A DNA stretch of 64,000 nt from Escherichia coli (GTDB lineage Bacteria > Pseudomonadota > Gammaproteobacteria > Enterobacterales > Enterobacteriaceae). The position numbers and the translations under genes are program-made. Shown here in pieces: positions 12,237 through 12,244 of this stretch. The stretch is taken from NCBI RefSeq assembly GCF_003334305.1, contig NZ_QOWS01000006.1; one strand, written 5' to 3'. Position 1 is the first letter of the stretch, and each line of letters opens with the position of its first letter. The notes beneath the pieces were generated by a model that was not told the DNA's origin, ran no database searches, and was given only the letters and a program-made list of their open reading frames with translations.

Positions 12237-12244
<8 letters not shown>
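11714..12244 (+). CDS. kefF: flavodoxin-like quinone oxidoreductase, regulatory subunit of the KefC K+ efflux system
   Basis: 176-aa [26 protein letters not shown]...; its TAG stop overlaps the kefC start. Confidence 0.9.

Follow-up and report, generated by a model that had tools for sequence, protein, structure and literature searches.

The kefF-kefC junction of Escherichia coli: an ordinary 8-nt overlap that carries a selected ribosome-binding site and may support partial translational coupling

The 64,000-nt stretch of E. coli DNA analysed here (the window; RefSeq assembly GCF_003334305.1, contig NZ_QOWS01000006.1) corresponds to the chromosomal locus around cai-fix-yaaU-kefFC-folA-apaH. 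Within it, kefF (formerly yabF), encoding the soluble ancillary quinone-oxidoreductase subunit of the KefC K+/H+ efflux system, occupies 11714..12244 on the plus strand, as delimited by its ORF, its family match and RefSeq; the 176-aa product ends in ...EWQEAHHG*, with the TAG stop at 12242-12244. kefC, encoding the glutathione-gated K+/H+ antiporter, extends from ATG 12237 to 14099 (+) and specifies 620 aa with the N-terminus MDSHTLIQ. kefF lies directly 5' of kefC; the two share strand and operon, an arrangement also stated in a review. The proteins were identified with NCBIfam equivalog models: KefF scored 265.3 bits against NF002044 (cut-off 210) and KefC 1161.9 bits against NF002924 (cut-off 752), with KefC residues 1-619 aligned to positions 2-622 of the 623 in the latter model. 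Both whole-protein cut-offs were thus passed, assigning the pair to the KefF/KefC glutathione-gated K+ efflux system, and the window's proteins scored under the cut-offs of the KefG and KefB models. One review (PMC7349511) exchanges the old names ("KefG formerly YabF ... KefF formerly YheR"); this naming was set aside because it contradicts the title of Miller et al. 2000, the RefSeq annotation and the gene positions in the window. Rfam gathering-threshold matches elsewhere in the window were the SgrS sRNA (40328-40554, +), the leucine operon leader (46534-46683, -), a TPP riboswitch (38472-38571, -) and naRNA4, a REP-derived nucleoid-associated RNA (22661-22740, -); tRNA genes are absent from the window.

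The 3' end of kefF and the 5' end of kefC have eight nucleotides in common, ATGGATAG at 12237-12244 (+), which hold both the kefC ATG and the kefF TAG. The overlap runs from codon position 2 to 3 in kefF and from codon position 1 to 2 in kefC, and the TAG falls 5 nt past the ATG. The kefC ribosome-binding site (AGGAGG) and start codon both sit within the last six kefF codons. Since the kefC start lies 8 nt before the last base of the upstream stop on the same strand, the pair belongs to the -8 class of overlapping genes. The overlap had been reported by the first-pass annotation and was borne out here, with ATG 12237 and TAG 12242-12244 re-read in the sequence and RefSeq in agreement. A 901-bp junction query matched 5417 of 5426 complete E. 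coli genomes at 97.7-100% identity, including a K-12-like strain at 99.4% and strain AR_452 at 100%. RefSeq places kefF at 47246-47776 and kefC at 47769-49631 in the K-12-like strain, which is the same 8-nt overlap, and annotates the same overlap in the strain with 100% identity; both strains have KefF under the accession WP_000600725.1. The window shows the same locus as the K-12 kefF(yabF)-kefC junction (b0046/b0047), with no difference of substance.

The pair has also appeared in the literature. The BPhyOG 2007 paper worked through <yabF, kefC> to illustrate overlap phase, <2:3,1:2>, and kefF-kefC is listed at distance -8 with the entry "CMPLX yes" in supplementary file 3 of Huber 2023 (PMC10666635). 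The 8-nt overlap is therefore an ordinary junction, already annotated and of an already published type. What is new here is the overlap count in 57 sequences, the start column restricted to A or G, the invariant GGAG core and the rank of the Shine-Dalgarno (SD) sequence among 31 genes.

The mechanical ORF list opens the kefC frame further upstream, at TTG 12141 (652 aa). The frame is open from 12126, the next in-frame stop being TGA 12123, and GTG 12165 is the sole other canonical candidate. Were KefC to start at TTG 12141 or GTG 12165 with an N-terminal extension, the overlap would become about 100 nt of dual-coding sequence. Beyond the open frame and the ORF call itself, the evidence points away from this reading. 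Duplex energies with the anti-SD were -2.1 kcal/mol for TTG 12141 and +2.2 kcal/mol for GTG 12165, that is, neither has an SD. Upstream starts were surveyed in 54 Enterobacteriaceae-type sequences, comprising the window and 53 loci from a scan of species-representative genomes. In 23 of the 54, no ATG, GTG or TTG occurs in the kefC frame upstream of the conserved start, and in 24 an in-frame stop closes the frame 18-24 nt before it, so the extension cannot be a conserved protein segment. The family model begins at MDSH. The hypothetical 32-residue extension would carry six K/R and no D/E (+6 charge); because the KefC N-terminus is extracellular, with TM1 directly after it (PMC11150392), such a segment would by the positive-inside rule be unfavourable for translocation. 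An upstream start is effectively refuted, the chance left to it being minute, and 12141..12236 (+) is best regarded as non-coding in the kefC frame.

The start column itself is constrained: of 48 species, 44 have A and 4 have G as the first base, and the codon is therefore always ATG or GTG. An A->G change at this column turns KefF His175 into Arg, and still only A or G occurs. The KefC chains of PDB entries 8bxg, 8by2 and 9emb (cryo-EM and crystallographic constructs) begin at MDSHTLIQ. Supplements of the TRAINSPOTTER N-terminomics study contain no mention of kefC or kefF; the hydrophobic nature of the N-terminal KefC peptide probably explains its absence from existing datasets. Five independent lines of evidence (SD, other species, start column, constructs and topology) identify ATG 12237 as the real, conserved KefC start. 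The first-pass annotation had placed the start there, and its assignment holds on the SD found only at this codon, the A/G start column, the end-to-end NF002924 fit, RefSeq and the constructs. It was also right to call the ORF from 12141 an artefact, given the lack of an SD and the 23 of 54 sequences without an upstream start; its argument that the overlap itself demonstrates the artefact fails, the overlap being silent on an upstream start. Mechanical "longest ORF" calls over-extend genes whose starts lie within an upstream gene, and beyond correct annotation, namely that KefC begins at MDSHTLIQ, the junction analysis matters little. The same list also over-extends folA, giving a 204-aa ORF from ATG 14156 (14156-14770) where RefSeq has 159 aa (14291-14770), an artefact of the same type.

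The kefC SD, CAGGAGG at 12224..12230 (+), is identified by duplex energy and synonymous-site conservation and lies in kefF codons Q171-E172-A173; its AGGAGG (12225-12230) is separated from ATG 12237 by a 6-nt spacer. Its predicted duplex with the anti-SD (-10.3 kcal/mol) is the strongest of 31 neighbouring genes. The last part of kefF thus holds an SD at a workable distance from the kefC start, as expected of a coupled pair. Selection on this element was examined in 48 species chosen for equal kefF length, in which mean third-codon-position entropy is 1.12 bits for kefF and 1.16 bits for kefC. Positions 12226-12229 (GGAG) show zero entropy across the 48 species. Q171 is CAG in 45/45 and E172 is GAG in 48/48, and the GGA of G176 is likewise invariant, whereas nearby kefF codons vary (Gln165, 29 CAA to 18 CAG; Glu169, 16 GAA to 14 GAG) and background Glu columns have GAG in 5-32 of the 48 species. 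Single-codon usage was found in only 3 of 249 conserved degenerate codon columns. Because the Q171 and E172 codons are invariant against variable Gln and Glu backgrounds, selection acts on the SD itself, and the codon comparison shows the SD core to be under selection independent of the KefF protein sequence. Judged from these alignments, the kefF-kefC junction is real and functional as the carrier of a selected ribosome-binding site. Because the 48 species were filtered for equal kefF length, a conserved stop position is a circular result in that set, whereas the SD codons are unaffected; the overlap was therefore recounted on all 57 unfiltered sequences.

In that unfiltered set, 56 of 57 Enterobacteriaceae-type sequences retain the 8-nt overlap (51 with ATGGATAG, 4 with GTGGATAG and 1 with ATGGATAA), from genera including Escherichia, Citrobacter, Salmonella, Enterobacter, Klebsiella, Raoultella, Leclercia, Lelliottia, Yokenella, Trabulsiella, Pluralibacter, Buttiauxella, Franconibacter and Shimwellia. 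The remaining sequence, from Entomohabitans teleogrylli (locus L053, 3027-3040), has a 14-nt overlap, ATGGACAG. Here a GAT->GAC change at KefC codon 2, synonymous in kefC, abolishes the TAG, so that kefF is two codons longer and its stop has moved 6 nt; read as a natural experiment, this sequence shows that the overlap geometry can shift. By our own rough estimate, an out-of-frame ATG would be followed by a stop within two codons in about 9% of cases (from 3 stops per 64 codons). On this reckoning a chance origin of the 8-nt geometry in one sequence alone is not improbable, while its conservation in 56 of 57 appears to exceed chance. Outside the family the junction is less uniform: Pseudomonas kefF-kefC junctions have a 1-nt gap or an overlap of 14 or 23 nt, Burkholderiales and others an overlap of 4 or 1 nt or a 1-nt gap, and one Bacteroidota genome an 11-nt overlap. 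In most distant homologues the junction lies in the range from a 23-nt overlap to a 3-nt gap; four have wider gaps, of 13-67 nt. From these comparisons, what is broadly conserved appears to be the tight juxtaposition of stop and start, the exact -8 form being a family-level trait.

Such drift is expected if the overlap is a by-product of genome compaction, with kefC mainly initiated de novo at its strong internal SD and without functional coupling. The 8 nt would then mark the position of the next stop in the kefF frame, fixed by dual protein constraint, and dual coding constraint alone can indeed explain the conservation of the 8-mer. The free variation of the geometry in Pseudomonas, Burkholderiales and Bacteroidota and the apparently harmless 6-nt shift of the stop in E. 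teleogrylli both fit this account, as does the very strong, unsequestered SD. The start of kefF is relevant in the same way. The kefF start region (11689-11716) has almost no SD (-2.6 kcal/mol), and its opening energy of 12.2 kcal/mol is the second-highest of the 31 neighbouring genes, so that it looks far weaker than the kefC start. A weak kefF start ahead of the kefC start with the strongest SD is odd if kefC translation merely follows kefF translation: with so weak-looking a start on kefF, a kefC under strict coupling would have little benefit from a very strong SD. The codon usage of the overlap argues in the other direction, with KefC codon 2 more firmly fixed (GAT 55, GAC 1) than other conserved Asp columns (30:26, 45:11 and 48:8). 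On balance we take compaction without coupling to be a possible explanation of lesser probability, both for the mode of kefC initiation and for the length of the overlap; further points on either side are given below with the coupling literature.

RNA structure at the junction was assessed by folding. A sequestering hairpin was sought and the junction folded no better than shuffled sequence (z = +0.53); a search for covarying structure in 16 species gave a consensus fold of -3.2 kcal/mol with 0 compensatory pairs. These results bear on coupling through RNA unfolding, in which a masked kefC start would be opened by kefF translation and then bound by a fresh 30S subunit. It is one of the two accepted coupling models, the other being reinitiation or scanning by the terminating ribosome (PMC12548453), and it draws some support from the predicted energy for opening the region where kefC translation begins: 9.6 kcal/mol, rank 24 of 31, where the local median is 7.4. 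This model calls for a stable, conserved structure masking SD and start, and the junction, with a minimum free energy equal to that of its shuffles and a consensus fold of just a few kcal/mol, shows none; we accordingly regard RNA unfolding as an improbable basis for coupling at this site. With an opening energy over the median, an upstream ribosome would nevertheless be expected to help kefC initiation. On the plus strand, no sigma-70-like or terminator-like site was found between kefF and kefC. A consensus promoter scan likewise gave no plus-strand match upstream of 12237 inside kefF, a result that is not decisive because the scan, which gave no match upstream of kefF either, is too insensitive.

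The paralogous pair kefG(yheR)-kefB offers a close comparison, despite only 39% identity between KefF and KefG. It has the same order of ancillary gene and antiporter gene, the same AGGAGGCC SD block embedded in the end of the ancillary gene, and an antiporter that starts ATGGA..., as kefC does; stop and start overlap in both. In kefG-kefB the overlap is 1 nt (TGATG, stop TGA), compared with 8 nt and stop TAG in kefF-kefC, and the relative reading frame of the two genes therefore differs. The E. coli kefG-kefB junction (locus L003, 2468-2490, minus strand) reads CAGGAGGCCGCTGATGGAAGG, against CAGGAGGCCCATCATGGATAG for kefF-kefC, and kefG reads the SD block in a different frame than kefF. Within the 41 kb surrounding kefF-kefC, 4 of about 25 co-directional junctions overlap: kefF-kefC itself, fixC-fixX (ATGA, 9930-9933), pdxA-rsmA (ATGA, 16895-16898, minus strand) and surA-pdxA (TAATG, 17884, minus strand).

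The position of kefF-kefC within the -8 class is informative for coupling. The spacings -8, -4 and -1 are the three enriched ones, and -8 is enriched genome-wide over neighbouring overlap lengths (PMC12548453). Short overlaps in E. coli are 4.5-fold enriched for subunits of heteromeric complexes (PMC10666635). The -8 class, NTGNNTRR, is considered conducive to termination-reinitiation; kefF-kefC has the same spacing and, like the class, an SD inside the upstream gene and products that form a heteromeric complex (PMC12548453, PMC10666635), and differs from the example motif in its stop, TAG rather than TGA. In a reviewed series of experiments, coupling dropped faster with growing overlap than with growing spacing (PMC12548453). 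Huber 2019 found 4 of 5 tested overlapping E. coli pairs to be coupled, menDH only to about 60%, and one overlapping pair, bioBF, to be uncoupled; strict coupling went together with stable structures that cover the downstream start and prevent initiation de novo (PMC6728339). Huber et al. tested mainly pairs with a -4 or -1 overlap, whereas kefF-kefC is a -8 overlap. bioBF thus sets a precedent for overlap without coupling, and the enrichment of the -8 class, its association with complex subunits and the majority of coupled pairs weigh against purely independent initiation of kefC. So does geometry: a ribosome terminating 5 nt past the AUG physically covers the start site, and because it occupies that site, kefF termination and kefC initiation cannot be fully independent.

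Taken together, we propose as the best explanation that the true KefC start at ATG 12237 is served by a selected SD and by partial kefF->kefC coupling through termination-reinitiation, a proposal we believe to be probably, by no means certainly, correct. Two things make coupling plausible: the -8 spacing belongs to the three enriched ones, and the two proteins assemble into a complex. The first-pass annotation had suggested coupling, a reasonable inference that others had already published for junctions of this class. A ribosome ending kefF would have its P site on GGA (12239-12241), 2 nt downstream of the kefC AUG, and the SD, 8 nt upstream of the P-site codon, would still lie within range of anti-SD pairing. 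Terminating ribosomes, or their 30S subunits, could then re-engage the kefC AUG, and passage of ribosomes through the end of kefF would keep the moderately structured kefC initiation region open. In this way KefC would be made where its partner KefF is made, and in a linked amount. With so strong an SD and no conserved hairpin to sequester it, some de novo initiation at kefC is likely and coupling is probably partial rather than strict. Linked synthesis would be useful, since KefF is needed for full KefC activity (PMC11150392, PMC10224563) and binds KefC only weakly in vitro (PMC11150392).

A more specific form of the termination-reinitiation proposal would have the -8 spacing itself under selection: with the AUG 2 nt behind the P-site codon and the SD still paired, the 70S ribosome would slip back to the start, the 2-nt offset mirroring the +2 shift at -4 ATGA overlaps. 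KefC would then be made beside the just-released KefF, and the two could assemble co-translationally into a complex too weak to arise from the purified components. We consider this reading unlikely. No published test of kefF-kefC coupling was found in the literature, and to our knowledge no -8 pair, kefF-kefC included, has been directly tested for it. If coupling were shown, kefF-kefC would add one more regulatory subunit and membrane transporter made in linked amounts, and would be a handy natural system for testing the -8 class of overlaps, which has been studied less.

Three of the compared loci carry disrupted genes. In Leclercia adecarboxylata NCTC13032 (L020, ~3160-3165), kefC loses its frame after about codon 46 through a one-base insertion (CCGGGCTGG; a second L. 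adecarboxylata, L062, has CCGGCTGG), which marks a true pseudogene or else an error of assembly; the junction is intact. In Citrobacter amalonaticus AUH_CA_2023_1 (L063, ~2715-2725), kefF is frameshifted near codon 73, beyond which the translation follows a different frame; the assembly is a single contig and a sequencing error is the probable cause. The 8-nt junction is again intact. In E. coli STEC388 (L085, NZ_CP041425.1, 3054-5671), the end of a Mu-like prophage (com, mom) abuts an N-terminally truncated kefC annotated as a pseudogene, and kefF is absent. The same strain carries a ccdA/ccdB toxin-antitoxin pair between folA and apaH, a pair that the window does not have.
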